Shown: one piece after another, positions 1 to 35,313 of the stretch
Layout: each line of letters begins with the position of its first letter
How positions within the stretch are numbered: position 1 is the stretch's first letter
DNA from: Chitinophagaceae bacterium
Lineage (GTDB): Bacteria > Bacteroidota > Bacteroidia > Chitinophagales > Chitinophagaceae
Length of the DNA: 64,000 nucleotides
Assembly: GCA_044341875.1 (NCBI GenBank)
Contig: JBIIQT010000008.1
Coordinates: 3,393 to 67,392 of the forward strand
Direction: 5' to 3'
Made by a program: the position numbers and the translations under genes
The notes under the pieces: model-generated
What the model was told of the DNA's origin: nothing
Database searches by the model: none
The model's input: only the letters and a program-made list of their open reading frames with translations

Positions 1-111
1 CCGATACCCCAACGCCCTAAATAACCCCAATAATATGGCAGGAGGGTTGATTCGCCGTAAAATATTATATTGCATTTTCAGGCAATCCTGCCTGGCTTTC
101 AAACGAATGAA

Positions 112-1239: not shown

Positions 1240-1294
1240 TTTCTTTTACCGTTTTGTTGTTTAATCAACCGGCGGCATGATAAAAAATAAAACA

Positions 1295-2773: not shown

Positions 2774-2807
2774 TACTGCTTTCAATGTCAAATTGGAATA
2801 TCCCTTT

Positions 2808-2815
2808 TATCTTTG
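2808..2815 (+). promoter_or_regulatory. Bacteroidota -7 promoter element (TATCTTTG) upstream of xylA
   Basis: Exact TAnnTTTG match 42 nt before the xylA ATG. Confidence 0.6.
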
Positions 2816-2857
2816 ACGATATAAAATTATCATACTAAACATTAAAACATAGATCTT

Positions 2858-4186: not shown

Positions 4187-4217
4187 GAGTACCAGTTTCG
4201 ATAGAATTTATCTTATT

Positions 4218-4260
4218 AAAGAGGGGAATTTGGAATAAAATCTAAATCCCCCTCTTTTTT
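4218..4260 (+). terminator. Intrinsic terminator after xylA
   Basis: aaagaggggaattt...aaatccccctc hairpin followed by a T-run. Confidence 0.75.
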
Positions 4261-4392
4261 TACTCAATTATTGAATGTTCTAAAACACGATAAGAAAACT
4301 TTAACAATTCGATAAAAAATAGTAATATTGGAGTTCATAAATATACCTATCGGTATGTTTAAACTTTTTTAATAACCATAAAACTCGTCTAC

Positions 4393-7467: not shown

Positions 7468-7502
7468 ATCATTAACACGTAAAAACCAAGATTATGTTTA
7501 AA

Positions 7503-8984: not shown

Positions 8985-8999
8985 TTCTAAAGCAACAAA

Positions 9000-18501: not shown

Positions 18502-19980
18502 ATGGCAAACGAACTGACATCAAGGGCTACCGATTACGCACAATGGTACAATGAACTGATTTTGAAGGGCGGACTGGCCGACTATTCTGCTGTGAGGGGT
18601 TGTATGGTGATAAAGCCCTACGGCTATACCCTATGGGAAAACATGAGGGATGTATTGGACAAGATGTTCAAGGATACAGGCCATGTCAATGCCTATTTTC
18701 CACTCTTCGTCCCCAAATCCTTTCTGGAGAAGGAAGAGGGACATGCTGAGGGCTTTGCAAAGGAATGTGCTGTAGTTACCCATTACAGGTTGAAAACCGA
18801 TCCCAACAACAAGGGAAAGCTGATGGTTGATCCTGATGCAAAGTTGGAAGAGGAACTCATCGTTCGCCCTACCAGTGAAGCCATCATCTGGAATGCTTAT
18901 AAAGATTGGATCCAATCTTACCGGGATTTGCCCCTGTTGATCAACCAGTGGGCCAATGTGGTCAGGTGGGAGATGAGGACAAGGCTTTTCTTGAGAACGG
19001 CCGAATTCCTTTGGCAGGAAGGTCATACCGCACACGCCACGGCTGAAGAGGCAATTGAAGAAGCTGAAAAAATGCTGCATGTTTATGGAGATTTTGTAGA
19101 AAACTACATGGCGCTGCCTGTCATCAAGGGCATAAAAACTCCGAATGAGCGTTTTGCAGGTGCATTGGAAACCTATTGTATCGAAGCCCTGATGCAGGAT
19201 GGAAAGGCCTTACAGGCCGGCACTTCCCATTTTCTCGGACAAAACTTTGCCAAAGCCTTTGATGTGAAATACCTGACCAAGGAGAACAAACAGGAATTTG
19301 TTTGGGCAACTTCTTGGGGTGTTTCCACCCGGTTGATTGGGGCTTTGGTAATGGCACACAGTGATGATCAGGGACTTGTCATGCCCCCAAGAATTGCACC
19401 GTTGCAGGTGGTGATAGTTCCGATTTATAAAGGGCCAGAGCAAAAAGCCTTGGTGGATGAAAAAGTGAATGCCATCATCGCCGACTTGAAAGCCAACGGC
19501 ATATCTGTGAAATACGACGACTCAGAGAACACCCGACCAGGATGGAAGTTTGCAGAATATGAACTAAAAGGGGTGCCAGTTCGCATCGCGATTGGTCAGA
19601 AGGACATTGAAAATGGAGTGGTGGAAGTGGCAAGAAGAGATACCAAAGAAAAGCAGTCTATCCCCGCTGCAGACCTGATTGAACATGTCAAGTTCCTGAT
19701 GACCGATATCCAGCAAAACCTTTACAACAGGGCATTGTCATACAGGGATTCCCACATTACGGAAGTTAACAGTTGGGAGGAATTCAAACAAGTCCTCAAT
19801 GAAAAGGGCGGATTCATCTCAGCACATTGGGATGGAACGCCTGAAACTGAAGATAAGATCAAGGAGGAGTCCAAAGCAACCATCCGTTGTATTCCACTGA
19901 ACAACCAGGCCGAAGACGGGGTCTGCGTATTTTCAGGAAAGCCAAGTAAACAGCGGGTGTTGTTTGCAATGGCTTACTAA
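18502..19980 (+). CDS. proS: Proline--tRNA ligase (archaeal/eukaryotic-like type)
   Basis: [56 protein letters not shown] motifs and FAMAY C-terminus. Confidence 0.97.
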
Positions 19981-21203
19981 AGAATGATCGTGTCCCTTGC
20001 TGTAAGACATGCCCCAATAACCCCAGCTTTTTCTCCCAATTGAGATATCTTGAGTTTGGTATCGTTGTTGACCAGGCTCAGGGAAAGTTTGTTGAGGGTG
20101 CTTCTGGCTGGGAGACGGATGTAGTCGCCGGTTTCAGAAAGAGCACCTCCAAGGATAAGTATTTCAGGGTTGAAAATATTGACCAATAAAGCCAATCCCT
20201 TGCCCAGTTTTTCTCCTATTTCTGAAATCAATTCAATACTGAGCTGGTCCTCATTCAGTGCAGCATTGATGATATCATTCATGGTGATGTCATCAATGGA
20301 CATATTTTTTTTCAATGCAGTCGAAGTCAGTCCCTTTTTTATCTGCTCTTTGAATTTTCTAACAAGGGCATGCCCAGATGCTTCTGTTTCCAAACAACCT
20401 TTTTTGCCACAATGACAAAGGATTTCATTTTCAAAAAGAGGAATATGTCCGAACTCACCGCTAAAACCTGATTTTCCATAATATACTTTTCCGTCAAGCA
20501 GGATCCCCATCCCCATGCCATAATCCATGTTGATGAACAGGATATTGTTTTCTTTTCTCAATTCGTTGGACTGAAATTCGCCATAAGCCATTGCCCTGGA
20601 ATCGTTTTCAAGAAATGTTGGTATGCCTATTTCATTTTGGATGATCTCGGCCAGGGGCTCCTCTTTGAAGTGGAAAAAGCTGAAACTATGACCTGTTTTG
20701 TGGTTGATTCTTCCTGTCAGGTTGATGCCGATGCCCAGTATTTGGGCTTTGCTGCTGGGGCCTTCACCCAGAAAGGACTTGATGAGCTGGATCAGGTTTT
20801 CAAGTGATTCTGGCGTGTTTTCAAGCCGGAATGGCACTTTTTCCTTCTGATAGATCATTTTCTTGGTAAAATCCATCAATCCAAAGTTGATATGGAATTT
20901 TTTAACATCCACCCCCAGAAAAAAACAGGCATCTGGAACAAGACCGAACATGCTGGCCCTGCGTCCACCGGTTGAATCAAGTTTTCCTTCATCCTGAATC
21001 AAACCATCCTGTATCAGCTCATTGATCAAGGAGGTAGTTTTGGGGACGCTGGTGCCCAAATCTTTGCTCAATTCAGTGATGGTGCTGTTGCCAGACTGGT
21101 TGATGTGGCTGATGATGAACTTTTTCAGGGACCTGTTTTTGAAAACAACCCCAGAGACTGCCTCATCATTGAATATATCAAGATTTGTTTTTTTCCTTTT
21201 CAT
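19977..21203 (-). CDS. ROK family transcriptional regulator (NagC/XylR-like)
   Basis: N-terminal HTH ([23 protein letters not shown]), [20 protein letters not shown] and [15 protein letters not shown]. Start 21203; convergent 4-bp overlap with proS. Confidence 0.92.
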
Positions 21204-21443
21204 CGTTTTTCGAAGGTCAAATCTATGATTTATCTGTTTTAATCTTGACATTGACTGTTGAATGTTGTATTTATTTCTAGCCTTATTTAACAAGTAAATG
21301 GTCTTGGTTGGGCTGGGTAAGCTGTATTTTTTGTTGATATACGATCCAAATTAGATAATAAAAAAATTAACAAAGTTGCGTTAGTTTACAAATATTTTAT
21401 AAATTGTTAACCTATTTGAGCTGTAGTATTATAAATTATCCCA

Positions 21444-22655
21444 ATGGTACAAGAATTAAAAGAGGATGTAGTGAACCGTATATTGAACTATTCAGAACGC
21501 TATCATCAGGAATTGGTGAGCAATGTGCTTCCATTTTGGCTTGAGCATAGCAGGGATGAGAAGCATGGCGGCTATTTCACCTGTTTAGATCAGCATGGTA
21601 AGGTATACGACACTGACAAGTTCATGTGGTTGCAGGGAAGAGAGGTATGGTGTTTTTCGACCATGTACAGGCTCGTAGAACAAAATCCGGCCTGGAAGGA
21701 AATGGCACTTCATGGAGCATCCTTCATGAAAAAGTTTGGCCGGGATGCACAAGGAAACTGGTATTTCTCTCTTACTGCAGATGGTAAGCCACTGGTTCAA
21801 CCCTACAATATTTTTAGTGATTGCTTTGCTACCATGGCATTTGCCGCATTGAATAAAATTGACCCTTCACCAGAATACAGGGCAATCGCACTCGATACTT
21901 TTGAAAACATTATTGTACGGCAACACAATTGGAAAGGTGTTTACAATAAATCATTTCCTGGTTCCAGGCCAATGAAGAATTTTACACTTCCCATGATTCT
22001 GTGTAACCTGAGTTTGGAGCTCGAAGATATTCTAGGGAAGGAAAGGGTTGACTCATTTATTCCGACGGTTGTCCATGAGGTGATGGATGTTTTTTACAGG
22101 CCAGAGCTTGGTCTGATTGTTGAAAATGTGAATCAAGACGGAAGCCTTTCAGATACATTTGAAGGAAGATTGATGAATCCCGGTCATGCTATTGAAGCCA
22201 TGTGGTTCATCATGGATCTGGGAAAGCGCATGAACGATGTTGCACTGATTGAAAAGGCAAAGAACATCATGTTAAAAACGATAGAACATGCCTGGGACAA
22301 ACAGTATGGTGGATTGTTCTATTTCATGGATACAGAAAACAAACCAATGCAGCAGCTGGAGTGGGACCAAAAACTCTGGTGGGTACATGTAGAATCCCTG
22401 GTGGCATTGGCCAAGGGATATGCGCTTACCAATGACCCCGCCTGCTTAAAATGGTTTGATACCATGCATGCATATACCTGGGAGAAATTCCGTGATCCTG
22501 AAAACGGAGAGTGGTTCGGTTATTTGAACCGACGTGGAGAGGTGCTCAGCAGTGCCAAAGGTGGTAAATGGAAAGGCTGTTTTCATATTCCCAGGGCCTT
22601 GTATCAGGTTTCAAAAACATTCAGCGATTTACTCGCTACCTCAAATGAAAAATAG
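21444..22655 (+). CDS. N-acylglucosamine 2-epimerase (AGE family; ManNAc/GlcNAc)
   Basis: GGYFTCLD, DKFMWLQGREVW, MNPGHAIEAMWF, KLWWVHVE and GGKWKGCFHIPRAL (catalytic His motifs). Confidence 0.92.
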   Translation: MVQELKEDVVNRILNYSERYHQELVSNVLPFWLEHSRDEKHGGYFTCLDQHGKVYDTDKFMWLQGREVWCFSTMYRLVEQNPAWKEMALHGASFMKKFGRDAQGNWYFSLTADGKPLVQPYNIFSDCFATMAFAALNKIDPSPEYRAIALDTFENIIVRQHNWKGVYNKSFPGSRPMKNFTLPMILCNLSLELEDILGKERVDSFIPTVVHEVMDVFYRPELGLIVENVNQDGSLSDTFEGRLMNPGHAIEAMWFIMDLGKRMNDVALIEKAKNIMLKTIEHAWDKQYGGLFYFMDTENKPMQQLEWDQKLWWVHVESLVALAKGYALTNDPACLKWFDTMHAYTWEKFRDPENGEWFGYLNRRGEVLSSAKGGKWKGCFHIPRALYQVSKTFSDLLATSNEK

Positions 22656-22712
22656 TTTTATCCATCCATATAAAATAAGCATCAACAGAACCATTTTAAA
22701 CAAAAAACAATC

Positions 22713-25700
22713 ATGAAAAAGCTAACGCTTATCCTAACCATGCTCTGTACTTCCTGGTTGTTGGGTTTTTCCCAGCAGTCTAGAATCAGCGGAAAGGTGA
22801 CCAGCAGCGAGGGAGGAGCACCTGCAGAGGGTGTTTCCGTTCTTGTCAAGGGTGCCAAAAACGGTACAAGAACCAATTCCGCTGGTGAATTTACCATCAA
22901 CGCATCCACCGGACAAACCATCGTTCTTTCCGGTATTGGCTTTGCCTCAAAGGAGGTAGTGGTCAATGGCAATCAGTTGGATATAACCCTTACCTCTACT
23001 TCTTCAAGTCTTAATGAAGTAGTTGTGGTAGGATATGGTACACAGAAAAAAGCAAATCTTACCGGATCAGTTGTCTCGCTTAAGCAAGAGGATCTATTGA
23101 AGCGTCAGGTAGCCACTGCAAGCAACCTTTTGCAAGGTCTTGCACCAGGTGTAACAGTGACCCAACAATCAGGACGCCCTGGTGCTGATGGTGCCTCCAT
23201 CCGGATTCGCGGCTTGAGTTCCATTTATGCTGGTCAGAGTCCATTGATCATGGTTGATGGAGTTGTTTCGAGCCTGGATGCCATTGATCCCAATGCCATT
23301 GAGAGCATTACGATTCTCAAGGATGCAGCATCAACCGCCATTTATGGAACACGTGCAGCCAATGGTGTTGTGTTGGTAAAAACCATTCGTGCAAAGGGTA
23401 AAGGCGTCAAGGTGAGCTACAACAGTTTTGTTTCCAAGCAGATTGCAACTGCAATGCCTGAAAGGACAACCGCTATTGAGCACATGGAACTGAGCAATGT
23501 AGCAGAACAAAACAGAACAGGAAACCCCGCCGCATTCCTTTTCCAACAGCCATTGATTGACAAATACAAAACTACACCGGCGAATAATCTTGATGTTATT
23601 GACAACGACTGGGTGGACCTCTTGTTTACCAATTCTGCATTGATGCAGAACCATAACGTAACGCTTAATTCGGGTGGCGAGAATACCAATGTATTCACCT
23701 CCGTTACCTACCTGGATCAGCAGGGCCTGATTCCCAATAACAGTTTCAAGCGCTATGATATTCGTTTCAATCCTGATTTCAAGCTGAGAAAAAACCTGAC
23801 CTTGAGTGGGGTTTTCAACTATAACTTCAGCAAGAATACGGCTCCATCAACATCCAGTCCTGAATTTATCATCCGTCAGGCCATTGGATTGCCTGCAATC
23901 GGTGCCGCTAAATTTGGTCCTGGAATGTATGGAACTGCAGGACAGACCAACAATAGAAATCCACTGGCCCAGGCCGAAGCTGCAGGTACATCCGTTTCTG
24001 AAAACAATTCATTCCTGAGTAAAATTGCGCTCAATTACAAGCCCATTGAAAGCCTTGAATTGGAAGCCTATTGGTCTCGCGAGCATTGGACCCCCCATGG
24101 AAAGACTTTTACCAAGAATGCAGACATTTATGTGCCGAACCTGGTTACTTCAGGATATGACAAGATCAGCCAGTGGCCTGGTTCCACTAGCCTTGGAGAG
24201 TCTTATTCGTCGAACACAAGGAATACCATGCTCGCACAGGCAACTTTTTCCCAAAACTTTGGCAACCACCAATTCAAATTGTTGGCTGGTGGTCAAACAG
24301 AGGAATTCTTGTATGAAGGCATCTCCGCTTCCAGAACTGGTTTCAATAACCCTGATCAACCCTATCTGAATCTTGGTGCTGCAGACAGAAACAATGCTGG
24401 TTCCGCCTACCAAACTGCGCTGGCTGGTTTTTATGCAAGGATGAACTACAGTTATGACGATAAATATCTTCTCGAAGTCAATGGCCGATATGATGGTTCA
24501 TCAAGGTTTTCACAGGCCTTGAACAAGCAATGGGGCTTTTTCCCATCTGCTTCAGCTGGATGGATCTTCTCCAAAGAGAAATTCTTTGATGGCCTGTCAG
24601 GTTTGATCAATTTCGGAAAAATCAGGGCCTCCTATGGCTTGCTGGGAAATCAGGCGTTGCCAGAGATCTATCCTTTTGCTGTGAATTACCAAACCTCAAC
24701 GTATTCCAATCCCAACAATGGAACAAGCACTTATTTGAACAATGTTACCACGCTGGGATATGCATTGCTGGATGCGCCCAACCCGGGCATCACATGGGAG
24801 AACTCAGCACAGATGAACGTAGGTATTGACCTTACAGTGAAGCGAAACCTTACCCTGACATTTGATTATTACAAGCGCGCCATCAGTGAAATTCTTTTGT
24901 CGAGGCCCATTCCTTCCTATATTGGCTTGAGTCCTCCTTTTGTAAATGCCGGAGACATGACCAATACAGGTTGGGAGGTGAGTGCGAATTACAAAGCCAA
25001 TATCAGCAAGAAATTTAGGCTTGATGCAACCCTTATGCTGAGTGATGTTGTGAACGAAGTAACAGCATTGCCTGGTGTACCTTTCCTGGATGGAGGTTCT
25101 TCGCGTACAGCAGTTGGACAGGCCTTGTGGTCCTATTTTGGTTATCAAGCGATTGGATATTTCAAGGACGCCAATGATATCACCAGTTCACCGGTTCAGT
25201 TTGGTGTTCCCTTTAGTGCAACCACTGCCAATGGCCCCAAGCCTGGAGATGTAAAATATGCCGATATCGGCGGTGCTAATGGAAAGCCAGACGGAATAAT
25301 TGATGCTTTTGACAGGACCTTTATTGGTAACAGCTTTCCTCGCTATGAATACAGTGTTAACCTTAACCTTAGCTATGTGAACTTCGACCTTAACTTGTTT
25401 GGACAGGGTGTAGGATTGAGGAACAATTATCTCAGCGGTACAGGTGCCATTCCTTTCAACAGCAGTGATTTTGTTGCTTCACTTCTCTCTATACACAAGG
25501 ATTACTGGACACCTTCCAACACCAATGCAACCTTCCCCCGTTTGTTGCCTTCCGGTTCAGGTGGAACAAATTTTGTTGCATCCGACAAATGGATCAGGAG
25601 TGCTGCCTACTTCAGGATCAAGAACATCAATCTTGGATACAGGTTGCCTTCATCTGTCATCAAAAGGTTGAAGATTACTGGAGCAAAGGTTTACGCCAGC

Positions 25701-25823
25701 GGACAAAACCTGTTGACGTTCTCAGATACCTGGAATGGGTTTGATCCTGAAATCAACAGCCAGTCAGGCCAGTTTTATCCTTTGATGAAAACCTTCACAG
25801 TAGGGGTGAACCTCAACTTCTAA
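22713..25823 (+). CDS. susC: SusC/RagA TonB-dependent transporter
   Basis: Signal peptide, LNEVVVVGYGTQKK, IESITILKDAASTAIYGTRAANGVVLV, RYDGSSRF, C-terminal Phe. Confidence 0.96.
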   Translation: MKKLTLILTMLCTSWLLGFSQQSRISGKVTSSEGGAPAEGVSVLVKGAKNGTRTNSAGEFTINASTGQTIVLSGIGFASKEVVVNGNQLDITLTSTSSSLNEVVVVGYGTQKKANLTGSVVSLKQEDLLKRQVATASNLLQGLAPGVTVTQQSGRPGADGASIRIRGLSSIYAGQSPLIMVDGVVSSLDAIDPNAIESITILKDAASTAIYGTRAANGVVLVKTIRAKGKGVKVSYNSFVSKQIATAMPERTTAIEHMELSNVAEQNRTGNPAAFLFQQPLIDKYKTTPANNLDVIDNDWVDLLFTNSALMQNHNVTLNSGGENTNVFTSVTYLDQQGLIPNNSFKRYDIRFNPDFKLRKNLTLSGVFNYNFSKNTAPSTSSPEFIIRQAIGLPAIGAAKFGPGMYGTAGQTNNRNPLAQAEAAGTSVSENNSFLSKIALNYKPIESLELEAYWSREHWTPHGKTFTKNADIYVPNLVTSGYDKISQWPGSTSLGESYSSNTRNTMLAQATFSQNFGNHQFKLLAGGQTEEFLYEGISASRTGFNNPDQPYLNLGAADRNNAGSAYQTALAGFYARMNYSYDDKYLLEVNGRYDGSSRFSQALNKQWGFFPSASAGWIFSKEKFFDGLSGLINFGKIRASYGLLGNQALPEIYPFAVNYQTSTYSNPNNGTSTYLNNVTTLGYALLDAPNPGITWENSAQMNVGIDLTVKRNLTLTFDYYKRAISEILLSRPIPSYIGLSPPFVNAGDMTNTGWEVSANYKANISKKFRLDATLMLSDVVNEVTALPGVPFLDGGSSRTAVGQALWSYFGYQAIGYFKDANDITSSPVQFGVPFSATTANGPKPGDVKYADIGGANGKPDGIIDAFDRTFIGNSFPRYEYSVNLNLSYVNFDLNLFGQGVGLRNNYLSGTGAIPFNSSDFVASLLSIHKDYWTPSNTNATFPRLLPSGSGGTNFVASDKWIRSAAYFRIKNINLGYRLPSSVIKRLKITGAKVYASGQNLLTFSDTWNGFDPEINSQSGQFYPLMKTFTVGVNLNF

Positions 25824-25842
25824 TCCAAGTAAAACATTTAAC

Positions 25843-27618
25843 ATGAAAAAGATATTTCTATACAGTTTCCTGATCTTGCTGGTAGCCCTTGGCGGTTGCG
25901 ACAAGTTTCTGGACAGACAGCCACTGGACAGTATTTCATCAGAAACGTTTCTTGCCACTGAGCAAGAAATGGAGCTTGGTTTGAATGGTGTTTATGCGGC
26001 TTCTTTTTGGGCATTGGCCAACAATACCCCACTTCATTTTGCGATTGAATCCGCTACAGACCTGGCCATCAAGCGTACAGGAAATTCCGAAGACCAAGTA
26101 GCAATGGGAGATGGTGGTCCATTCCTTGTGGGCAATGCACTGACCTCAACAGCTTGGAGCCAAGCGTATAAGCTGGTTTCAAGGGCCAACTACCTTCTGG
26201 ATGGCATGAAGAAAGGCCAGGCTGCAGCTGCTCCAAGAACCTATAGCCGCATAAGGGCTGAGGGTCTTGTGCTCCGTGCCTGGGCTTATTATCACCTCAT
26301 GGGATGGTTTGGTGATCCCATCTTCTACACCAAGCCACTGTTGCCTTCAGAGTATGAGACATTGTCAAGAACTCCTGTTGCAACTGCCGCACAAGAACTG
26401 TACAAGGATCTAGATGAAGCCGTTTCATTGTTTGATGCAGCTGGGGCCAGTCCTATTATTTTGTATGGAAGGGTGAACAAAGGTGTTGCACTGGGCCTTA
26501 AAGCCAAATTGGCCATGTTGATCAAAGACAACAAAACAGCTGCAGCTGCATCCAAAGCAGCCATGGACATGAATGCTTATGGCCTGAATCCTCGCTACAC
26601 TGATTTGTTCATGTTGGCAGGACAGCGTTCGAATGCAAACCGTGAAATCCTTTTTGCCCAAACCTATCCAACCGATGTGTTGGATCCTCAAAACTGGCTC
26701 GCTGTTCTAACGATTCCTCGCCAGGTGGGAACTTCTCAGAGCAGTCATTTCCCATCACAGGCATTGTTTGATCGCTACGAAATGAGAGATGGCAGAAGAA
26801 TCGATCAGTCTGCATTGTATGATCCCAGAAATCCTTCAGCCAATCGTGACAGAAGGTTGAAATGGACCATCTATTCTCAAGGGGACACGATGGTACACAA
26901 TACTGCAAAATCACCATCATTGCCTTATGTGCAGCCCAAAGAACGCACCATCTACAATATCTATACCAATGTGCGCATCAAATGGAATTGGAGCACCAAC
27001 CGTTATGACAATGTTGCCAGCAATATTGATTGGATTGGATTCCTCAATTCTCCATGGTTCGCAGGCTCTACAGGATCTTCAGGTGGTGTCGGATATGTGT
27101 GGAGCAAGTACATTGATTCAACCCAATATTCCTGGGAGACCAAAACCGGTTATATCCTTATGCGTTATGCAGATGTTTTGCTGACCTACGCTGAGGCCAA
27201 AATTGAACTCAATGAAATTGATCCAACTGTTTTTGCTGCGATCAATGCAGTAAGGGCTCGTGCTGGTCAACCTGCTGTTACAACAGGTACCCAAGCTGCC
27301 TTGAGGGAATTGATCAGAAGGGAGCGGGCAGTTGAATTTGGTGGCGAAGGGTTAAGGTTGATGGATTTGCGCAGATGGGATATTTACAACAAGGCCATGA
27401 CAGGTCCTGTGGTTGGTGTTTCATTGAGTCTCACTGATCCTGCAGCAGCGCCAAGCTTTGATGCAGATGGCGTTCCCAATTACAATGCAACAATAGCCAA
27501 AAGATTGAAAACCAGAAACCAGACAAGGGAAAATACCAACGTCAAATACAAACTCTGGCCCATACCACAGGGTGAGTTGGATAAGAATCCTAACCTTAAA
27601 CAGAATCCAGGTTGGTAA
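25843..27618 (+). CDS. susD: SusD/RagB lipoprotein
   Basis: Lipobox ALGGC-DKFLD; MRYADVLLTYAEA, ERAVEFGGEG.RLMDLRRW and WPIPQGELDKNPNLKQNPGW motifs. Confidence 0.95.
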   Translation: MKKIFLYSFLILLVALGGCDKFLDRQPLDSISSETFLATEQEMELGLNGVYAASFWALANNTPLHFAIESATDLAIKRTGNSEDQVAMGDGGPFLVGNALTSTAWSQAYKLVSRANYLLDGMKKGQAAAAPRTYSRIRAEGLVLRAWAYYHLMGWFGDPIFYTKPLLPSEYETLSRTPVATAAQELYKDLDEAVSLFDAAGASPIILYGRVNKGVALGLKAKLAMLIKDNKTAAAASKAAMDMNAYGLNPRYTDLFMLAGQRSNANREILFAQTYPTDVLDPQNWLAVLTIPRQVGTSQSSHFPSQALFDRYEMRDGRRIDQSALYDPRNPSANRDRRLKWTIYSQGDTMVHNTAKSPSLPYVQPKERTIYNIYTNVRIKWNWSTNRYDNVASNIDWIGFLNSPWFAGSTGSSGGVGYVWSKYIDSTQYSWETKTGYILMRYADVLLTYAEAKIELNEIDPTVFAAINAVRARAGQPAVTTGTQAALRELIRRERAVEFGGEGLRLMDLRRWDIYNKAMTGPVVGVSLSLTDPAAAPSFDADGVPNYNATIAKRLKTRNQTRENTNVKYKLWPIPQGELDKNPNLKQNPGW

Positions 27619-27639
27619 ACATGGATTGAAACAATTGCA

Positions 27640-27664
27640 CAAGGCCGGACAAGTTCCGGCCTTG
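27640..27664. terminator. Hairpin between convergent susD and GHL10 genes
   Basis: Perfect 10-bp stem caaggccgga/tccggccttg abutting the minus-strand stop codon. Confidence 0.7.
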
Positions 27665-28870
27665 TTATTTTATGAAAGGGTATTGGCCCTGAAACCAGGG
27701 AAGGGATTCTTTCACACCTTCATAGAAAAAAAATACTTCCCCCTTAAATCCGTTGTTGCGGTTGCCCTGGATCATTTGAGACAGAAATCCGGGTGAAGCC
27801 AAATAGGTTCCAGATTTGATGAGTACTCCAGGGTAAAAGGGAATATTGTTGTTCCTGTAATATGATTTTTGTTGTAAGACGGTTGCCGTGTAAGCCGCAA
27901 TATCATAGCGATAACATTGTGGAATAACTGCATCCACCCAGCTGCTGTCTACCCATGTTGGCCAGTCTTGCAAATACTCTTCCAAGGCCCACGGATAGGC
28001 GCTTGGCGACATGGTTACCTGAATGCCGGGTTTCAATGTTTTCATTTCTTTGTGAAGCCGTTTCATGAATGCGTTCAGCTTTTTCGCCCGCCAGTTCAGC
28101 CATCCAGCATCCTTGATGTTGGTGGGAGGCAAGGCGCCATTGTTTTCAAGCTTATACTGGGCAATGGTATAATCATCATATCCAGCAGAAGAGGGAAGCG
28201 CAGGCAGCCTGTCGTCTCCCTGAACGCCATCCACTTCATATTTTGATACCACTTCCTTGAAGAGATCAATCATGTATTGTTGTACTTCAGGATCAAATGC
28301 ATTGAGCCAATCAAATCCGTTTTTGACAACCAGTGCGCCATTCTGGTCCCTTGCCGCCCATTTGGGTTTTGCAGCAATGATGGATCCTCCCTGGGCGCTG
28401 AAGGAAGATGAAAAACCATACTCAAACCAGGCATGTACCTTGATGCCAGCGTTTTTGGCAGCGGTAATCATCTCTCTCAATGGGTCCCTTCCCTGAAATT
28501 TTTCCAGCTGTCTGTTGCCAGTAAGTTTGAACATCACATCACTCGGATAAATGGTCCTGGCATTGTTGTAGACAACAATGAATATGTTGTTGATTCCTGC
28601 TTTTTTGCAGTTGTCTACCGTCTGCAAGATATTGTCGTTGTTGTCCAGTGCATTGCTTGCTGTGGTGGTAATCCAAACACCCCTCATGGCATTGACATCC
28701 CATACTGGCGAAGGCGGTGGTTTGGGTGTGGGCGTTGTTCCCCCGCTCCCTGATCCGGTATTGTTTTTTTTGCAGGATTGTAGTAACATAAAACCGAGGC
28801 AAAACACCAAGGCCACTTTTACAATGCGTATATTGTTGATTGCTTTAAATTGCTTGGGTACCTCTTTCAA
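27665..28870 (-). CDS. Glycosyl hydrolase-like family 10 (GHL10/DUF187) lipoprotein
   Basis: Lipobox LLQSC, Gly/Pro linker, MRGVWI, GRDPL, GIKVHAWFEYG and VDGVQGDD motifs. Exact start uncertain. Confidence 0.85.
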   Translation of the reverse strand: MKEVPKQFKAINNIRIVKVALVFCLGFMLLQSCKKNNTGSGSGGTTPTPKPPPSPVWDVNAMRGVWITTTASNALDNNDNILQTVDNCKKAGINNIFIVVYNNARTIYPSDVMFKLTGNRQLEKFQGRDPLREMITAAKNAGIKVHAWFEYGFSSSFSAQGGSIIAAKPKWAARDQNGALVVKNGFDWLNAFDPEVQQYMIDLFKEVVSKYEVDGVQGDDRLPALPSSAGYDDYTIAQYKLENNGALPPTNIKDAGWLNWRAKKLNAFMKRLHKEMKTLKPGIQVTMSPSAYPWALEEYLQDWPTWVDSSWVDAVIPQCYRYDIAAYTATVLQQKSYYRNNNIPFYPGVLIKSGTYLASPGFLSQMIQGNRNNGFKGEVFFFYEGVKESLPWFQGQYPFIK

Positions 28871-28951
28871 AATTGTTGTTTTTGTTTTTAAAAATAATTA
28901 ATAAATTGATTTGAGTTTATAAAAATTATAAGAAAAGATTTAACTTGACGC

Positions 28952-30805
28952 ATGCAACTGCACTGGCTTGATTTATTGATCATCATGGCCTATTTGGTCA
29001 TGACACTTCTTTTGGGATTTTATTTGTCTAAACGGGCATCAAAAGACCTGGCATCTTATTTTCTTGGTGGCAATACCATGAAATGGTACATGCTTGGACT
29101 GTCCAACGCCTCTGGCATGTGGGACATCAGCGGCACCATGTGGACCGTCATGATTTTGTTTGTTTATGGGCTCAAAAGCGCCTGGATTCCATGGCTCTGG
29201 CCTGTATGGAACCAGGTCTTTGTCTTTGTATTTCTTGCCGCCTGGATGCGGAGAAGCAATGCTATGACAGGTGCGCAATGGATCAGTTTCCGTTTTGGAG
29301 AAGGTCGGGGGGCAAAGCTGTCATACATTATCATTGTGGTATTTGCATTGGTGAGCGTGATCGGCTTCATGGCTTATTTCTTTGAAGGGATAGGTAAGTT
29401 TTGTACTTCAATCCTGCCGTATGATCTTTCTTTTCACATAGGCTCCTTCCTGATTTCCAATGAGCAATCCTATGCATTGTTGATCTGTGGTATCACCACA
29501 ATTTACACCGTTAAGGGTGGCATGTACAGTGTTGTGGCAACAGAAATCTTGCAGTTTTTCATCATGACCATCAGCTGTTTTGTCATTGGCTATATCGCAT
29601 ACACAGCTGTTACACCAGCACAAATTGCTGAGGCTGTTCCCAATGGCTGGGGGAACCTCTGGTTTGGCATGGATCTCGGACTGGATTGGTCTTCCACTCC
29701 TTATCCCTTGGTGAATGATAAAATTGATGGCGATGGATTTGGATTGTTTGGGGCCTTGTTCATGATGATGTTGTTCAAGGGTGTTTTTGCCTCACTTGCG
29801 GGCCCTGTTCCCAGTTATGATATGCAAAGGGTATTGAGTACCCGCACCGCTGCTGATGCTGCCAAAATGAGCATGAGCACCATTCTGGTGATGTACATGC
29901 CCCGTTACCTGATGGTGGCTGCTTTTGCGGTATTGGGTTTGGTTTATCTCAAGCCTGAAATCGTAGGAATGGGCGCCAATATTGATTTTGAAAAAGTGCT
30001 GCCACTGGCCATCAATAAGTTTGTCCCCATAGGTTTCAAAGGCATATTGATTGCAGGGTTATTGGCGGCCTTCATGGGCACTTTTTCTGCTGTGGTCAAT
30101 GCGGCTCCTGCCTATATTGTCAATGATATTTACAAGAAATACGTCAATCCTAATGCCTCTTCAAAAAAACTGATACGCTATAGTTTATTGTCATCGATTT
30201 TGTTGGTCGCGGTGGGTATAGTTTTTGGATTCAATGCCGCTTCTTTGAATACACTGACCCTTTGGATTACATCTGCATTGTATGGTGGATATGCCGCTTC
30301 CAATATGTTGAAATGGATTTGGTGGAGATTCACTGGATATGGTTATTTCGGCGGCATGTTGGCAGGCCTGATCATCAGCACCTGCATCCTCTTTTTCAAA
30401 CAACCTCTGTTGGATTTTGCAGGCATTGAAGGAGTCGTACCCGATATTTATCTTTTCCCATTGGTGCTGTTGTTTTCCATGATCGGTTGTATTGTGGGTA
30501 CCTATCTCATGCCACTTGAAAATATTGAGGATGTAAAAAACTTCTATAAAAAAACCAATCCCTGGGGTTTTTGGGGGCCCATCAAGCAGATGGTCATGCA
30601 GGAAGATCCTGGTTTTGTTCCCAACAATTCATTGGGAAGAGATGCTTTCAACGTATTGGTTGGGATGGTCTGGCAGATGGCACAGGTCGTTATCCCTATT
30701 TATTTTATGATCAGGGATCAGCAACAGTTGGCCATATGGACCATGCTTTTCTTTGTCAGCAGCTGGTTGTTGAAAAAATATTGGTGGAATAAACTGGAAA
30801 ACTAA
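28952..30805 (+). CDS. Sodium:solute symporter family transporter
   Basis: Many TM segments; YFLGG..MKWYMLGLS, GGMYSVVATE, QRVLSTR and GLLAAFMGT motifs. Confidence 0.92.
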   Translation: MQLHWLDLLIIMAYLVMTLLLGFYLSKRASKDLASYFLGGNTMKWYMLGLSNASGMWDISGTMWTVMILFVYGLKSAWIPWLWPVWNQVFVFVFLAAWMRRSNAMTGAQWISFRFGEGRGAKLSYIIIVVFALVSVIGFMAYFFEGIGKFCTSILPYDLSFHIGSFLISNEQSYALLICGITTIYTVKGGMYSVVATEILQFFIMTISCFVIGYIAYTAVTPAQIAEAVPNGWGNLWFGMDLGLDWSSTPYPLVNDKIDGDGFGLFGALFMMMLFKGVFASLAGPVPSYDMQRVLSTRTAADAAKMSMSTILVMYMPRYLMVAAFAVLGLVYLKPEIVGMGANIDFEKVLPLAINKFVPIGFKGILIAGLLAAFMGTFSAVVNAAPAYIVNDIYKKYVNPNASSKKLIRYSLLSSILLVAVGIVFGFNAASLNTLTLWITSALYGGYAASNMLKWIWWRFTGYGYFGGMLAGLIISTCILFFKQPLLDFAGIEGVVPDIYLFPLVLLFSMIGCIVGTYLMPLENIEDVKNFYKKTNPWGFWGPIKQMVMQEDPGFVPNNSLGRDAFNVLVGMVWQMAQVVIPIYFMIRDQQQLAIWTMLFFVSSWLLKKYWWNKLEN

Positions 30806-31735
30806 ATGCAGATTACAGGTACATTTTTGGATGAAATAAGCCACGACATTCCACACCAGAATTGGGGTGAAAAAGAATGGGACAAGGACTTTGAACACAT
30901 GAAGCGGGCGGGTATCAACACCGTTATCCTGATCCGGTCTGGGTACAGAAAATTTCTTACTTATCCATCCGCCTACCTGATCAACAAATACAATTGTTTT
31001 GCACCTCCTGTTGATCTGGTAGAATTGTTTCTCTCTCTTGCAGACAAACATGGGATGCAGTTTTATTTTGGGCTCTATGACAGTGGCATCTATTGGGACA
31101 CCAATGACATGTCTCACGAAATTGAAGCCAACCAATTCGTAGTGGAAGAGGTTTGGAGAAAATATGGCCATCATCCTTCATTCAAGGGCTGGTACCTCAG
31201 CATGGAAATCAGCCGAAAAACCAAAGGCGCTATTGACGCTTTCAGCACGCTTGGACAATTGTGCAAGGACATGAGCGGTGGTTTGCAAACATTGATCTCG
31301 CCATGGATCGATGGCCCCAAGGCCGTTGCTGCAGCTTCTGCCATTTTGAAAAAAGATCAGGCTGTTTCACTGTTGCAGCATGAACAAGAGTGGGATGAAA
31401 TTTTTGCAGGCATCCATCAACATGTTGATGTTGTTGCCTTTCAAGATGGGCATGTTGAGCTATCGGATTTGCAGGACTACCTCGAAGTGAACAAGCGGTT
31501 GGCAGAAAAGTACGGCATGAAAGCATGGACCAATACAGAAAGTTTTGACAGGGACATGCCCATTAAATTTTTCCCCATAAAATTTGAAAAGCTCAAACTC
31601 AAGCTGGAGGCTGCTGAAAGGGCAGGGTATGAAGAGGCCATTACTTTTGAATTCTCACATTTCATGAGTCCTCAATCTGCCTATGTTCAGGCACATCATT
31701 TGTACAACAGGTATATGGAATTTATCAATTATTGA
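30806..31735 (+). CDS. DUF4434 family putative glycoside hydrolase (cytoplasmic)
   Basis: ITGTFLDEISHDIPHQNWG, GINTVILIRSG, GWYLSMEIS and WTNTESFD motifs; no signal peptide; starts immediately after the symporter stop. Confidence 0.8.
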   Translation: MQITGTFLDEISHDIPHQNWGEKEWDKDFEHMKRAGINTVILIRSGYRKFLTYPSAYLINKYNCFAPPVDLVELFLSLADKHGMQFYFGLYDSGIYWDTNDMSHEIEANQFVVEEVWRKYGHHPSFKGWYLSMEISRKTKGAIDAFSTLGQLCKDMSGGLQTLISPWIDGPKAVAAASAILKKDQAVSLLQHEQEWDEIFAGIHQHVDVVAFQDGHVELSDLQDYLEVNKRLAEKYGMKAWTNTESFDRDMPIKFFPIKFEKLKLKLEAAERAGYEEAITFEFSHFMSPQSAYVQAHHLYNRYMEFINY

Positions 31736-31737
31736 AC

Positions 31738-32817
31738 ATGGGTAGAATTTTCAAACTGATCGCAGGTCTTTTCATTTGTTTGTTTACAAATGCTCAGGAA
31801 AGTCCTGTGCGCGGCACCTGGGTAACCAATGTTGCCAGTGAGGCTTTGAATTCCCGGGAAAACATCAAAAATGTGGTAGACCAAAGCAAGGCTGCAGGTT
31901 TAAATCATTTGTTTGTGGTGGTGTGGAACAGAGGCGTTACCATCTATCCCAGCAAGGTGTTGCAAAAATACATTGGTGTGAAACAGGATGATCATTACCC
32001 AGGCCGCGATCCTCTGCAAGAGATGATTGAGGAGGCGCACAAGCAGGGCATCAAGGTTCATGCCTGGTTTGAGTTTGGTTTTTCCTATGGCTACAAGGAT
32101 ACAAGTTCTGCATGGTTCAAGCGATATCCTGAATGGTTGGGCAGAAACAATAAAGGTGAACTCCTGCAAAAAAATGGTTTTTATTGGTGGAATGCCCTGC
32201 ATCCGGGCCCGCAGCGTTTGATGCGTGAGTTGGTATTGGAAGTGGTAAAGCAATATGACATAGATGGCGTTCAGGGTGATGACCGCTTGCCCGCAATGCC
32301 TGCTGAAGGTGGATTTGATGCATATACTGCAGCACTGTACAAAAAAGATAAAGAACTTGGCTTGCCCTTTGATAATCCCAAGGATCAAGCGTTTATTCAA
32401 TGGAAAGCAGACAAGCTCAGCCTGTTTTGCAAATCCCTGTATGAAGCTGTTAAGCAACAAAGGGGAGCTTGTATCGTTTCATGGGCCCCCAGCATTTATC
32501 CATGGTCAAAAGAGCAGTATTTGCAGGATTGGCCAACCTGGCTTAAGGGCGGTTATGCTGATTTTGTCATTCCTCAACTCTACCGGTACAAGTTGGCTGA
32601 TTATGAAAAGATTCTCAAAGAGCTTGCCGCTCAGGTACCGCCAAGCTTGTTGAAAAAGGTTTACCCTGGTATCCTCACTTCTCTCGGCGATGGTTACCAG
32701 GCCAGCCCTGAAATGATGGCACAGATGATTTCCCTGAACAGGAAATATGGTTTTGATGGTGAGGTTTTCTTTTATTATGAAACATTGAACAAGGTGCCAT
32801 CATTCAAGATTGAGTGA
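31738..32817 (+). CDS. GHL10/DUF187 family hydrolase (Sec-exported)
   Basis: Signal peptide, VRGTWV, GRDPLQEMI, GIKVHAWFEFG and IDGVQGDD motifs; paralog of 27665-28870. Confidence 0.85.
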   Translation: MGRIFKLIAGLFICLFTNAQESPVRGTWVTNVASEALNSRENIKNVVDQSKAAGLNHLFVVVWNRGVTIYPSKVLQKYIGVKQDDHYPGRDPLQEMIEEAHKQGIKVHAWFEFGFSYGYKDTSSAWFKRYPEWLGRNNKGELLQKNGFYWWNALHPGPQRLMRELVLEVVKQYDIDGVQGDDRLPAMPAEGGFDAYTAALYKKDKELGLPFDNPKDQAFIQWKADKLSLFCKSLYEAVKQQRGACIVSWAPSIYPWSKEQYLQDWPTWLKGGYADFVIPQLYRYKLADYEKILKELAAQVPPSLLKKVYPGILTSLGDGYQASPEMMAQMISLNRKYGFDGEVFFYYETLNKVPSFKIE

Positions 32818-32856
32818 TAGCTGAATCATATTTTTATTTTATAAAATCCAGACATT

Positions 32857-33867
32857 ATGTACAAGTTCCTGATTTGTTTGTTGCTGATTTCCTGCTCAAA
32901 AAAGAACGATACCGGTCCGGTTGCACCTCCTACACCTGTTACCCCTCCCGTGGTCAAAACAACGGCCAAGTTGATGACCCTGCCTTCAGGGTGGAAATTT
33001 TCCGTCAACCTTTCCAATGGCTTTCCAGATGCCATTGAGGCATATGAGTTTGATTCTTTGGTTCAAGGTTCCAAAGTAAAAGCTTTTGCTGTTGCATTCA
33101 ATCCCAAAAACAGTCCCATTGAATTCAAGCCTGTATTGTCTGCTACAGCAAAAAAGCCTTCAGAATTTTATACACAGGAGCAGGGCGTCGTTTATGCCTG
33201 CATCAATGGTGGATTTTTTGGCGGTAGTCAGTCTTACAGCCTGGTCAAGTACAACAACAGCGTATTGTCTGCCAATATCAAATCAGTGAGCCGTACGTAT
33301 AATGGACTAAGTACCCCTTATTTTCCTACCCGGGCTGCATTTGGTATCAATACGACAGGAGATCCCTCCGTTGCATGGATTTACCATGTTGGAACGGGGA
33401 ATGATAAGGTATTCCAATACCCCCTGCCAAGTGCCAATCAATTAGGGACCCAACCCAAGCAGCAACCGGATGAAAATTTTCCTGCCGGCGGAACAGAATG
33501 GCAGGTGCTTTCAGCCATCGGAGGCTCACCGATGTTGATAAAAGCAGGTGCAATCAGTATATCTGACAAAGAGGAATTGATTGATATCAACAATACCACT
33601 TCAAGGCCAAGGTCTGCTATCGGCGCCACAACCGGGGGGCTGGTACTGGTATTGGCCATTGAAGGAGATAACCCCAGTGCTGGTTATCCCGGGATCAATT
33701 TGGCCGATTTGGCAAAAATGTTGAAAGACCTGGGTTGCAGGGATGCCATCAATCTTGATGGTGGAGGGTCTACCGGCTTAATTGTGAACAACCGTCAAAC
33801 GGTAAGGCCCGGCGATAATGGCGTAGAAAGGATTGTTCCAAGTGTTGTGGTCATCAAAAAGAAATAA
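32857..33867 (+). CDS. Phosphodiester glycosidase (NAGPA/DUF2233) family lipoprotein
   Basis: Lipobox LLISC, Pro-rich linker, INGGFF, RPRSAIG and AINLDGGGST motifs. Confidence 0.88.
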   Translation: MYKFLICLLLISCSKKNDTGPVAPPTPVTPPVVKTTAKLMTLPSGWKFSVNLSNGFPDAIEAYEFDSLVQGSKVKAFAVAFNPKNSPIEFKPVLSATAKKPSEFYTQEQGVVYACINGGFFGGSQSYSLVKYNNSVLSANIKSVSRTYNGLSTPYFPTRAAFGINTTGDPSVAWIYHVGTGNDKVFQYPLPSANQLGTQPKQQPDENFPAGGTEWQVLSAIGGSPMLIKAGAISISDKEELIDINNTTSRPRSAIGATTGGLVLVLAIEGDNPSAGYPGINLADLAKMLKDLGCRDAINLDGGGSTGLIVNNRQTVRPGDNGVERIVPSVVVIKKK

Positions 33868-33906: not shown

Positions 33907-35313
33907 ATGGCATACGATGTTCTAGTATTAGGTAGTGGTCCTGGTGGTTATCCTGCTGCGATCAGGGCTTCTCAGCTTGGCTTCAAAGTGGCAATTATCG
34001 AAAAGGAAAGTCTTGGAGGCGTTTGTCTCAACTGGGGTTGTATCCCTACCAAGGCGCTCTTGAAAAGTGCCCAGGTATATGAGTACATGAAGCATAGTGC
34101 TGACTATGGCATCAAGAGTTCAGGCGTTGAACATGATTTCGAGGCCGTGGTGAAAAGAAGCCGTGGCGTAGCCGATAAGATGAGCAAGGGCGTTCAGTTT
34201 CTTATGAAAAAGAACAAGATCGATGTGGTCATGGGCTATGGCAAGATTGCAGGAAAAGGCAAGGTTGAAGTAACTGCCGCGGACGGTAAAAAACAAATTG
34301 TTGAAGGAAAATACATCATCATCGCTACGGGTGCCAGAACCCGTCAGTTGCCTAATCTTCCACAGGATGGCAAAAAAATCATTGGCTACCGCGAAGCAAT
34401 GGTGCTTCCACAGCAACCCAAATCCATGATTGTGGTGGGCAGTGGTGCCATTGGTGTAGAGTTTGCAGATTTCTACAATACCATGGGCACCAAAGTGACC
34501 GTGGTGGAGTTCATGGACCGCATTGTTCCTGTTGAAGATGCAGACATCAGCAAAGAGCTTGAAAAGCAATTGAAGAAAAAGGGGGTCACCGTGCTTACTT
34601 CCAGTGAAGTGACCAAGGTAGATACTTCAGGTGCAGGCGTAAAAGCCACTGTGAAGAGTGCTGCAGGTGAATCTGTTCTTGAGGCAGAAATCCTGTTGAG
34701 CGCCGTGGGTATTGCTCCCAATATTGAAAACATCGGTCTTGAAGAAAACGGGATCAAGGTTGAAAAGGGTAGGATTGTGGTAGACAAAGGCCAGCAAACA
34801 TCTGTTGCAGGTATTTATGCCATTGGAGACTGTTCTCCTGGTCAGGCCCTTGCCCACGTTGCAGGAAAGGAAGGCATCAATGCAGCTGAAAGCATTGGTT
34901 ACCTGGAGAAGAAATGTAACCACAAACCTGATGCCATTGACTACAACAATATTCCTGGCTGTACCTACTGCTCGCCAGAAATCGCCTCAGTTGGATTCAC
35001 TGAAAAAGCGGCAAAGGATGCAGGATACGAGGTAAAGGTGGGTAAATTCCCCTTCATGGCCAGCGGAAAGGCAAGTGCTTCAGGCAATACCGATGGATTT
35101 GTGAAAGTAATTTTCGATGCCAAATACGGCGAGTTCCTCGGTGCCCACATGATTGGCGCCGGCGTAACTGAGATGATTGCTGAAGTGGTGGTCGCCCGCA
35201 AGCTCGAAACCACTCACCATGAGATCCTCAATGCCATTCACCCCCATCCTACCATGAGTGAAGCCGTAAAAGAAGCTGTGGCTGCTGCTTATGGCGAGGC
35301 GATTGACATTTAA
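33907..35313 (+). CDS. lpdA: Dihydrolipoyl dehydrogenase
   Basis: GSGPGGY, GGVCLNWGCIPTK redox disulfide and HPHPTMSE motifs. Confidence 0.96.
   Translation: MAYDVLVLGSGPGGYPAAIRASQLGFKVAIIEKESLGGVCLNWGCIPTKALLKSAQVYEYMKHSADYGIKSSGVEHDFEAVVKRSRGVADKMSKGVQFLMKKNKIDVVMGYGKIAGKGKVEVTAADGKKQIVEGKYIIIATGARTRQLPNLPQDGKKIIGYREAMVLPQQPKSMIVVGSGAIGVEFADFYNTMGTKVTVVEFMDRIVPVEDADISKELEKQLKKKGVTVLTSSEVTKVDTSGAGVKATVKSAAGESVLEAEILLSAVGIAPNIENIGLEENGIKVEKGRIVVDKGQQTSVAGIYAIGDCSPGQALAHVAGKEGINAAESIGYLEKKCNHKPDAIDYNNIPGCTYCSPEIASVGFTEKAAKDAGYEVKVGKFPFMASGKASASGNTDGFVKVIFDAKYGEFLGAHMIGAGVTEMIAEVVVARKLETTHHEILNAIHPHPTMSEAVKEAVAAAYGEAIDI

Follow-up and report, generated by a model that had tools for sequence, protein, structure and literature searches.

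A 64,000-nucleotide stretch of DNA from a Chitinophagaceae bacterium (the window) was analysed; it represents contig C19 of a 94%-complete, 2.75-Mb assembly in 110 contigs. Between positions 19977 and 33867 the window houses a polysaccharide utilisation locus (PUL), which we propose to be directed at a bacterial glycan of non-sialic amino sugars, characterised by N-acetylmannosamine (ManNAc), with a protein of the DUF4434 family releasing ManNAc from it. The probability of this reading is put at about one half. The PUL is of standard architecture; what lacks characterisation in the literature is its substrate class, along with three of its four enzyme families. The conserved core of the system consists of an inner-membrane importer, the DUF4434 protein and an N-acylglucosamine 2-epimerase (AGE).

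DUF4434, the epimerase and the link to ManNAc

The AGE encoded in the window is predicted to be a cytoplasmic enzyme that converts ManNAc into N-acetylglucosamine (GlcNAc). It scores 646 bits against the equivalog model NF052547 (cut-off 600), compared with 76 bits against the model for cellobiose 2-epimerase (EpiA) and 48 bits against that for mannose isomerase, and it is the sole AGE homologue in the whole genome. Relatives of the locus were confirmed at at least 581 sites in a collection containing one genome per species, and the best 80 loci were analysed, their neighbouring genes being clustered and the families identified with hidden Markov models (HMMs). This examination of co-occurrence across Bacteroidota, suggested as a check in a preliminary description of the window, revealed a conserved PUL family present in at least 581 species. 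The gene for AGE lies in cis with that for DUF4434 in at least 46 of the 80 loci: it is found within 10 kb in 29 of them (30 counting the window), and in 17 of 23 further loci, in which no AGE had been seen, it is located 10–19 kb upstream on the same strand, as judged by coordinates, at the head of the locus as in the window. All 23 of the genomes concerned contain an AGE, 21 of them one above the NCBIfam cut-off. In an even sample of 251 genomes from the phylum, AGE was present in all 10 DUF4434-positive genomes and in 19 of the 241 others (Fisher p ~1e-10, uncorrected for phylogeny). The epimerase, already counted among the genes of the PUL in the preliminary description, is thus a genuine and conserved part of it, in cis with DUF4434 across the phylum. 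One genome, G260, has two AGE paralogues (G260:C13:82718-88852 and G260:C9:137362-138510), of which one (693 bits) lies ~14 kb upstream of DUF4434 and the other (349 bits) ~4 kb from an orthologue of the sialic acid lyase NanA, which suggests separate AGE lineages for the DUF4434 and NanA pathways.

The DUF4434 protein matches its family end to end (PF14488, 2e-83, with profile positions 1-283 of 283 aligned) and closely resembles BT_0435 of Bacteroides thetaiotaomicron, whose structure has been solved (PDB 4H41; E=9e-147, 67% identity by Foldseek, TM-score 0.9). The next Foldseek matches of the predicted structure are GH10, Cwp19 (a GHL10 protein), GH2, GH53 and GH99, and the fold is modelled as a glycoside hydrolase (GH)-type, clan-GH-A-like TIM barrel. 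The search gave no clue to specificity, since beyond 4H41 it returned just generic GH-type TIM barrels. The protein starts directly at the conserved domain; it therefore lacks a signal peptide and is predicted to be cytoplasmic.

Among the related loci, the compartment of DUF4434 varies together with the class of the adjacent importer. DUF4434 has no signal peptide in 46 of the 50 loci with an adjacent SSS or AmpG-like importer, the remaining four being extensions by the open reading frame (ORF) caller that lack a canonical twin-arginine (Tat) signal; where the neighbour is a sugar porter of the MFS family, 11 of 12 loci encode a DUF4434 protein with a canonical Tat signal (p=2e-9 for the covariation). 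The loci contrasted with the rest in this switch are L025, L028, L048, L056, L058, L061, L069, L077-L079, L082 and L084. Cleavage by DUF4434 may thus take place before or after transport across the inner membrane, the class of transporter changing accordingly, and such covariation is what would be expected of an enzyme turning an oligosaccharide into the monosaccharide that is transported or epimerised.

A further link to ManNAc comes from Escherichia coli K-12, in which YbcH (b0567) is a full-length DUF4434 protein (1.5e-69). The glutamate of the motif GWY(L/I)SxEI, which is Glu134 of the window protein (GWYLSMEI), is common to both. Neither Glu245 nor Glu282 could be fixed as the second catalytic carboxylate, the alignment with YbcH being unreliable at 21% identity. 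The gene for YbcH lies in nfrB-nfrA-ybcH, where NfrA is an outer-membrane pore and the glycosyltransferase NfrB requires UDP-ManNAc made by WecB (PMC8669469, PMC8669472). Two genetic studies conclude that Nfr polymerises this WecB-derived UDP-ManNAc into the glycan receptor of phage N4, the ManNAc polymer itself being a proposal (PMC8669469, PMC8669472). Because the DUF4434 family includes YbcH of this ManNAc-linked system, a bacterial ManNAc glycan is the best-supported source of the sugar handled by the window locus. Both systems, each with a full-length DUF4434 protein, are genetically tied to ManNAc, that of E. coli through UDP-ManNAc from WecB and that of the window through AGE; however, Nfr is a system of biosynthesis and secretion while the window locus is catabolic, and YbcH is periplasmic, membrane-anchored and only ~21% identical to its counterpart in the window. 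Synthase-type exopolysaccharide operons usually encode a hydrolase for their own polymer (BcsZ, PgaB and PslG are examples), and by analogy YbcH might be such a hydrolase.

Taken together, the fold, the covariation of compartment with transporter and the connection of YbcH with ManNAc lead us to propose that DUF4434 is the glycosidase that frees the monosaccharide used by AGE. A bolder and more tentative version, to which we give appreciably less than even odds, would make DUF4434 the founder of a new GH family of N-acetylmannosaminidases, and the whole PUL family, including PUL8 and PUL9 of B. thetaiotaomicron, dedicated to ManNAc-containing bacterial polymers; the GHL10 proteins would then be endo-acting on ManNAc/GlcNAc backbones, not on peptidoglycan, and the NAGPA-like enzyme would cut an N-acetylhexosamine (HexNAc)-1-phosphate anchor. 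Exopolysaccharides of the Nfr/NGR type are envisaged as targets, as are pyruvylated secondary cell-wall polymers and teichoic-acid linkage units. What speaks for this version is genomic: the linkage to AGE, the association of YbcH with Nfr, and the covariation of compartment with transporter. We know of no characterised enzyme with N-acetylmannosaminidase activity, and full-text literature searches found no substrate named for DUF4434, for a Bacteroidota GHL10 protein, for DUF5009 or for the BT locus tags.

Organisation of the locus and proposed route

The genes and features of the locus, as obtained from an ORF listing and HMM scans of the window (Pfam and NCBIfam/TIGRFAM models), are as follows.

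18502-19980: proS, flanking gene
19977..21293, minus strand: ROK protein with an N-terminal winged helix-turn-helix (HTH) domain, transcription regulator (PF00480, 2e-55; HTH_24)
21444..22655, plus strand: AGE, N-acylglucosamine 2-epimerase (PF07221, 8e-76; NCBIfam NF052547)
22713..25823, plus strand: SusC-type TonB-dependent outer-membrane transporter (TIGR04056, 831 bits; Plug and CarboxypepD_reg domains)
25843..27618, plus strand: SusD-type surface glycan-binding lipoprotein, Cys19 (PF07980, 3e-50; PF14322)
27639..27665, no strand assigned: strong bidirectional terminator hairpin with an 11-bp stem and 7 G-C pairs, at the point where the SusD and GHL10a genes converge
27665..28870, minus strand: GHL10a, lipoprotein (LQSC followed by a Gly/Thr/Pro-rich linker; PF02638, 8e-62)
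28952..30805, plus strand: SSS-family sodium:sugar symporter, inner-membrane importer (PF00474, 3e-23)
30806..31735, plus strand: DUF4434 protein without signal peptide (PF14488, 2e-83)
31732..32817, plus strand: GHL10b, with Sec signal peptide (PF02638, 9e-59)
32857..33867, plus strand: NAGPA-like (DUF2233) lipoprotein, Cys22 (PF09992, 93 bits; cut-off 25)
33907-35313: lpdA, flanking gene (TIGR01350, 565 bits)

All nine genes named in the preliminary description are thus located where it had placed them, between proS and lpdA. Its further statement that they had been inserted there is not borne out: their GC content is the same as that of the rest of the window, and no empty site is available for comparison because relatives never keep proS and lpdA adjacent (0 of the 24 family relatives having both genes). 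The adjacent SusC and SusD genes, 19 bp apart, form the pair by which a PUL is recognised under the Sus paradigm, and co-located with them are two further lipoproteins (GHL10a and the NAGPA-like protein), the Sec-exported GHL10b and the divergent ROK-HTH regulator. The hairpin at 27639-27665 divides the AGE-SusC-SusD unit from the GHL10a unit. The SSS, DUF4434, GHL10b and NAGPA-like genes are separated by 0, -4 and 39 bp respectively, the stop codon of the first abutting the start codon of the second. Within the locus, HMM scans detected neither a sialidase nor NanA nor any glycoside hydrolase of a classical CAZy family; the enzymes it encodes belong to GH-like families unclassified by CAZy, and the earlier portrayal of a PUL composed mostly of uncharacterised hydrolase-like families therefore stands.

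The ROK gene is transcribed divergently from that for AGE and recurs at the head of related loci; its product is probably a repressor or sensor of the locus. With 190 bits against the NagC model (cut-off 650) and 176 bits against the Mlc model (cut-off 530), it is an orthologue of neither, and is therefore best described as a generic ROK-HTH regulator. A comparison by eye of the ROK-AGE and GHL10a-SSS intergenic regions for a shared operator yielded just short AT-rich similarities. SusD is not NanU-like (33 bits against the NanU model; cut-off 425). The solved structures nearest to the SSS symporter are vSGLT and SGLT1/2, there being no match at E<=0.01 to those of the sialic-acid transporter SiaT, and orthologues of 65-78% identity occupy the same position in other loci.

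The two GHL10 proteins are paralogues (46% identity), each ~30% identical to E. coli DigH, and the motifs KVHAWF and DGVQxDD are common to all three. The only relative of GHL10a in the PDB is Cwp19 (4e-13). GHL10a is probably an endo-acting glycanase of the cell surface; for GHL10b, with its Sec signal, a periplasmic role in trimming imported oligosaccharides is proposed. DigH and Cwp19 share the Pfam family and the retained DGVQxDD motif with these proteins, but they act on the cell's own wall in division or autolysis, whereas the window encodes a surface and a periplasmic paralogue in a nutrient-uptake locus, without an amidase or an N-acetylmuramic acid (MurNAc) pathway nearby. The gene context, with no amidase and with murQ near just one of the 80 loci, argues against peptidoglycan as the main GHL10 substrate.

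In the NAGPA-like protein the catalytic DGGGS motif is intact ('...AINLDGGGSTG...'), and the relatives found in the PDB are 3OHG and vertebrate NAGPA. The motif is invariant and catalytic, and binds GlcNAc-1-phosphate in the human enzyme (PMC13474241). Vertebrate NAGPA shares the Pfam family and this motif with the window protein, but the two resemble each other only weakly beyond the C-terminal core (E ~1e-5 to solved NAGPA structures), and the window protein, a bacterial lipoprotein, has no EGF stalk. The motif, together with a calcineurin-like phosphoesterase encoded in relatives, lends some support to a substrate that is phosphodiester-linked or anchored, though both genes are accessory in the family, that for NAGPA occurring in just 22 of the 80 loci. 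It is this single gene that points to a teichoic-acid linkage unit, or to a phosphodiester at all, and the linkage unit is one candidate among several. A second NAGPA-like paralogue (336 aa, 30% identical) is encoded elsewhere in the genome (C40:9181-10191), outside any obvious PUL and adjoining asparaginase-like and CutC-like genes.

From sequence and gene context the following route can be proposed. At the surface, GHL10a would act as an endo-glycanase and the NAGPA-like enzyme on HexNAc-1-phosphodiester caps or anchors, freeing oligosaccharides that would be bound by SusD and imported by SusC. GHL10b would shorten them in the periplasm, and the SSS symporter would bring a short oligosaccharide, probably of two sugars, across the inner membrane to the cytoplasm, where DUF4434 would hydrolyse it to free ManNAc, possibly together with GlcNAc. 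AGE would convert ManNAc into GlcNAc, which would enter central metabolism by way of a ROK kinase (contig C35) and of NagA and NagB encoded elsewhere, the whole locus being under the control of the divergent ROK-HTH protein. Nfr/NGR-type ManNAc exopolysaccharides, secondary cell-wall polymers and teichoic-acid linkage units are candidate substrates.

The PUL family in Bacteroidota

DUF4434 is 68-76% identical across 79 related loci (L006, at 98%, stands apart), and its range extends over Chitinophagaceae, Sphingobacteriaceae, Flavobacteriaceae, Hymenobacteraceae, Muribaculaceae, Tannerellaceae and Bacteroides. The recurring gene order is SusC, SusD, GHL10, importer, DUF4434 and AGE. In full, and with the genes that are not always present in brackets, it reads SusC, SusD, (DUF5018), GHL10, (calcineurin-like phosphoesterase), (DUF5009, HGSNAT-like), importer, (one or two SGNH esterases), DUF4434, AGE, (alpha/beta-hydrolase), (NagB-LmbE). 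The Chitinophagaceae form gains GH92, a second GHL10 and NAGPA. In 32 related loci an AmpG-like MFS importer replaces the SSS symporter, AmpG being a family-level assignment only (113 bits; cut-off 350). The genome to which the window belongs has no DUF5009, no AmpG-like importer, no phosphoesterase of this kind and no members of several unnamed families, and the window locus is a minimal, compact version of the PUL family.

Four more secreted families recur in related loci (clusters c18, c17, c19 and c21, exemplified by L013:1852-4335, L047:12043-13206, L044:13922-15112 and L082:8783-9667 respectively). They have no Pfam or NCBIfam match, save for a GH20b-like domain in c18, and all are absent from the window's genome. 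In the complete genome of Paraflavitalea speifideaquila (L020) the homologous locus is split into many short ORFs and AGE contains an in-frame TGA, the breakage reflecting either decay of the locus or sequencing errors.

The region BT0435-0454 of B. thetaiotaomicron is the same system as the window PUL family. PUL8/PUL9 (BT0433-BT0454) contain DUF4434 (BT_0435), AGE (BT0437 and BT0453), two GHL10 proteins (BT0447 and BT0449), SusC/D pairs and an MFS importer. They differ in being larger, with the addition of GH89 (BT0438), DUF5009, a calcineurin-like phosphoesterase and DUF4855, and a NAGPA gene has not been reported in the PUL8/PUL9 region. Loci of the Bacteroidales type combine a sugar-porter MFS with a Tat-exported DUF4434, whereas the window combines an SSS symporter with a cytoplasmic one.

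The source of ManNAc and competing explanations

The nan clusters of sialic acid catabolism comprise NanL/NanA, the AGE-type NanE, NanT, NanO/NanU, a sialidase and a ROK-type regulator or kinase. Like those of Bacteroides and Tannerella, the window locus has an epimerase of AGE type, converting ManNAc into GlcNAc, beside a ROK-family protein and a SusC/D pair; unlike them it has no lyase, sialidase, NanU-type SusD or sialate esterase, and most genomes with a locus of this type have no orthologue of this genome's lyase. The preliminary description had argued that, with no nanA or nanH, the ManNAc would not come from sialic acid. A search of the genome shows that this argument fails here: a canonical sialic-acid PUL is present at C39:9320-20795, encoding a GntR-type regulator, SusC, a NanU-like SusD (293 bits in a full-length match to the NanU model), a DHDPS-family protein for which the best model is N-acetylneuraminate lyase, a GH33 sialidase with visible RIP motif and Asp-boxes, a GH20 hexosaminidase and two SGNH esterases. 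Apart from the window AGE, no epimerase turned up at the C39 PUL or in the rest of the genome, nor could an inner-membrane transporter be recognised in the examined part of the C39 neighbourhood. Since the C39 PUL lacks an epimerase and the window AGE is the only one in the genome, sialic acid is a second likely source of ManNAc in this organism, and the window AGE very probably serves the C39 PUL as well.

For the PUL family as a whole the picture is different. The model TIGR00683 (nanA) proved unsuitable as a marker across the phylum: no genome passes its cut-off, and NanA is not separable from DapA in Bacteroidota. It was replaced by a protein search with the genome's own lyase, which detected an orthologue (>=45% identity) in just 4 of the 32 genomes with both DUF4434 and AGE, G260 among them, a count in which a different NanA lineage could be missed. 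Within 10 kb, a sialidase or NanA orthologue occurs in none of the 80 loci, and murK or murQ in one. With the lyase rare, no sialidase or NanA nearby, MurNAc genes near one locus in 80, a SusD unlike NanU and an SSS symporter resembling SGLT-type sugar carriers, the conserved system is neither a nan nor a MurNAc cluster. The idea of a non-sialic, bacterial origin of ManNAc is accordingly supported for the PUL family; in this genome the C39 PUL makes sialic acid a likely second source. Two further regions of the genome may be mentioned here. A murK-like gene (for a BadF/BcrA-type kinase) and murQ form a pair at C35:3040-4712 with no adjacent MurNAc transporter. At C29:117240-127722, another SusC/D locus is flanked by two more DHDPS-family genes, one of them best modelled as N-acetylneuraminate lyase; it may represent a pathway for a different 2-keto-3-deoxy or nonulosonic sugar.

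The reading of the locus as a PUL for a bacterial ManNAc glycan has several points against it. DigH, one of the characterised GHL10 enzymes, cleaves peptidoglycan. So does Cwp19, the other one (PMC6016235). The presence in this genome of a single AGE and a sialate lyase means that part of the ManNAc flux may be derived from sialic acid, and a ManNAc polymer does not explain the GH92 alpha-mannosidase of Chitinophagaceae relatives (22 loci). The co-occurrence statistics take no account of phylogeny, and the literature contains no assayed DUF4434, bacterial NAGPA-like or Bacteroidota GHL10 protein. YbcH is regarded there as an accessory or scaffolding component and not as a hydrolase, and the chemical make-up of the NGR polymer is a proposal (PMC8669469, PMC8669472). 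Finally, expression of the homologues in B. thetaiotaomicron rises in vivo and under carbon limitation, and no substrate has been assigned to them (PMC6989115); such a pattern does not favour a foreign bacterial polymer and leaves room for one derived from the host or from the cell itself.

The most probable of the rival explanations is salvage of the glycan strands of peptidoglycan, a target implied by the analogy with DigH in the preliminary description, in which the GHL10 proteins would be muramidases or lytic transglycosylases acting on foreign sacculi, the SSS symporter would import GlcNAc-(anhydro)MurNAc, DUF4434 would split it, and MurK and MurQ encoded elsewhere would finish the pathway. 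The only characterised GHL10 proteins cleave the MurNAc-GlcNAc bond, and GHL10a and GHL10b are, as noted, 30% identical to one of them; an AmpG-like importer takes the place of SSS in the 32 loci mentioned; the SGNH esterases and HGSNAT-like DUF5009 of relatives could de-O-acetylate, and re-N-acetylate the glucosamine of, modified peptidoglycan; and the murK-murQ pair of this genome has no transporter beside it. (A likeness of Tannerella forsythia MurT to DUF5009 could not be established from the literature.) Yet MurNAc catabolism has no place for AGE, which accompanies DUF4434 more faithfully than any other partner, murK/murQ occur near one locus in 80 with no recurrent amidase or peptidase, the match to AmpG is weak, and YbcH indicates ManNAc, not MurNAc, so that this explanation is judged unlikely. 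We consider it distinctly improbable, too, that the locus is an accessory module for sialic acid, its SSS symporter importing Neu5Ac (N-acetylneuraminic acid) or ManNAc, AGE and the ROK protein completing the C39 NanA pathway, and the other genes being passengers. The C39 PUL does lack an epimerase and, in the part examined, a recognised inner-membrane transporter, the only AGE of the genome is in the window, and in B. thetaiotaomicron the homologous genes adjoin the sialidase BT0455; this explanation would nevertheless be true only for AGE and only in this genome. A lyase orthologue is missing from 28 of the 32 genomes with the locus, a 10-kb neighbourhood free of sialidases and NanA orthologues surrounds every one of the 80 loci, the SusD is not of the NanU type, the SSS symporter has no match to a solved sialic-acid symporter at E<=0.01, and its gene is tightly packed with those for DUF4434, GHL10b and NAGPA (0, -4 and 39 bp). 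Moreover, B. thetaiotaomicron, which to our knowledge has no sialate lyase, retains two AGEs.

Two other explanations take the NAGPA-like enzyme and the epimerase, respectively, as their starting point, and the chances of either being correct appear slim. In one, the NAGPA-like enzyme would uncover phosphodiesters of the GlcNAc-1-P-mannose type on fungal, protist or host N-glycans or phosphomannans, for later attack by mannosidases and hexosaminidases. The intact DGGGS motif would suit such a role, as would GH92, GH20 and the calcineurin-like phosphoesterase in relatives and a gene set reminiscent of the lysosome (HGSNAT-like DUF5009 and, in B. thetaiotaomicron, the GH89 enzyme BT0438). However, GlcNAc-P-Man is a transient intermediate of the Golgi, not an abundant environmental glycan; NAGPA and GH92 are accessory genes, in 22 of 80 loci each, GH92 being absent from the window locus; and AGE and DUF4434 would be left without a role. 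In the other, the substrate of the AGE-family enzyme would be an imported HexNAc disaccharide, chitobiose for example, whose reducing end it would epimerise before cleavage by DUF4434. AGE and cellobiose 2-epimerase do belong to one fold family, and the operon logic parallels the mannobiose pathway of Bacteroides, with its symporter, cellobiose 2-epimerase and GH130; but the model scores (646 bits, above the equivalog cut-off, against 76 for cellobiose 2-epimerase) favour AGE, and in loci of the Bacteroidales type a Tat-exported DUF4434, with AGE apparently cytoplasmic behind a monosaccharide-type porter, would place cleavage before epimerisation.

Should the locus indeed be a PUL for a bacterial ManNAc glycan, this would supply a substrate class for a PUL of hundreds of soil, freshwater and gut Bacteroidota species, including two B. 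thetaiotaomicron loci that have been orphans since PUL transcription was first mapped. It would provide a first function for DUF4434, for which a crystal structure has existed since 2012, and for YbcH in the phage-N4 receptor pathway, and would account for the retention of AGE epimerases in those Bacteroides species that have no sialate lyase. The turnover of ManNAc polymers made by bacteria would then be a route for carbon and nitrogen between microbes.

The window contains a second, unrelated sugar region at 70-9968. Genes for an aldose 1-epimerase, an FGGY kinase and a TIM-barrel protein similar to xylose isomerase come first there; next are a SusC/SusD pair and a protein with a BT_3987-like N-terminal domain.

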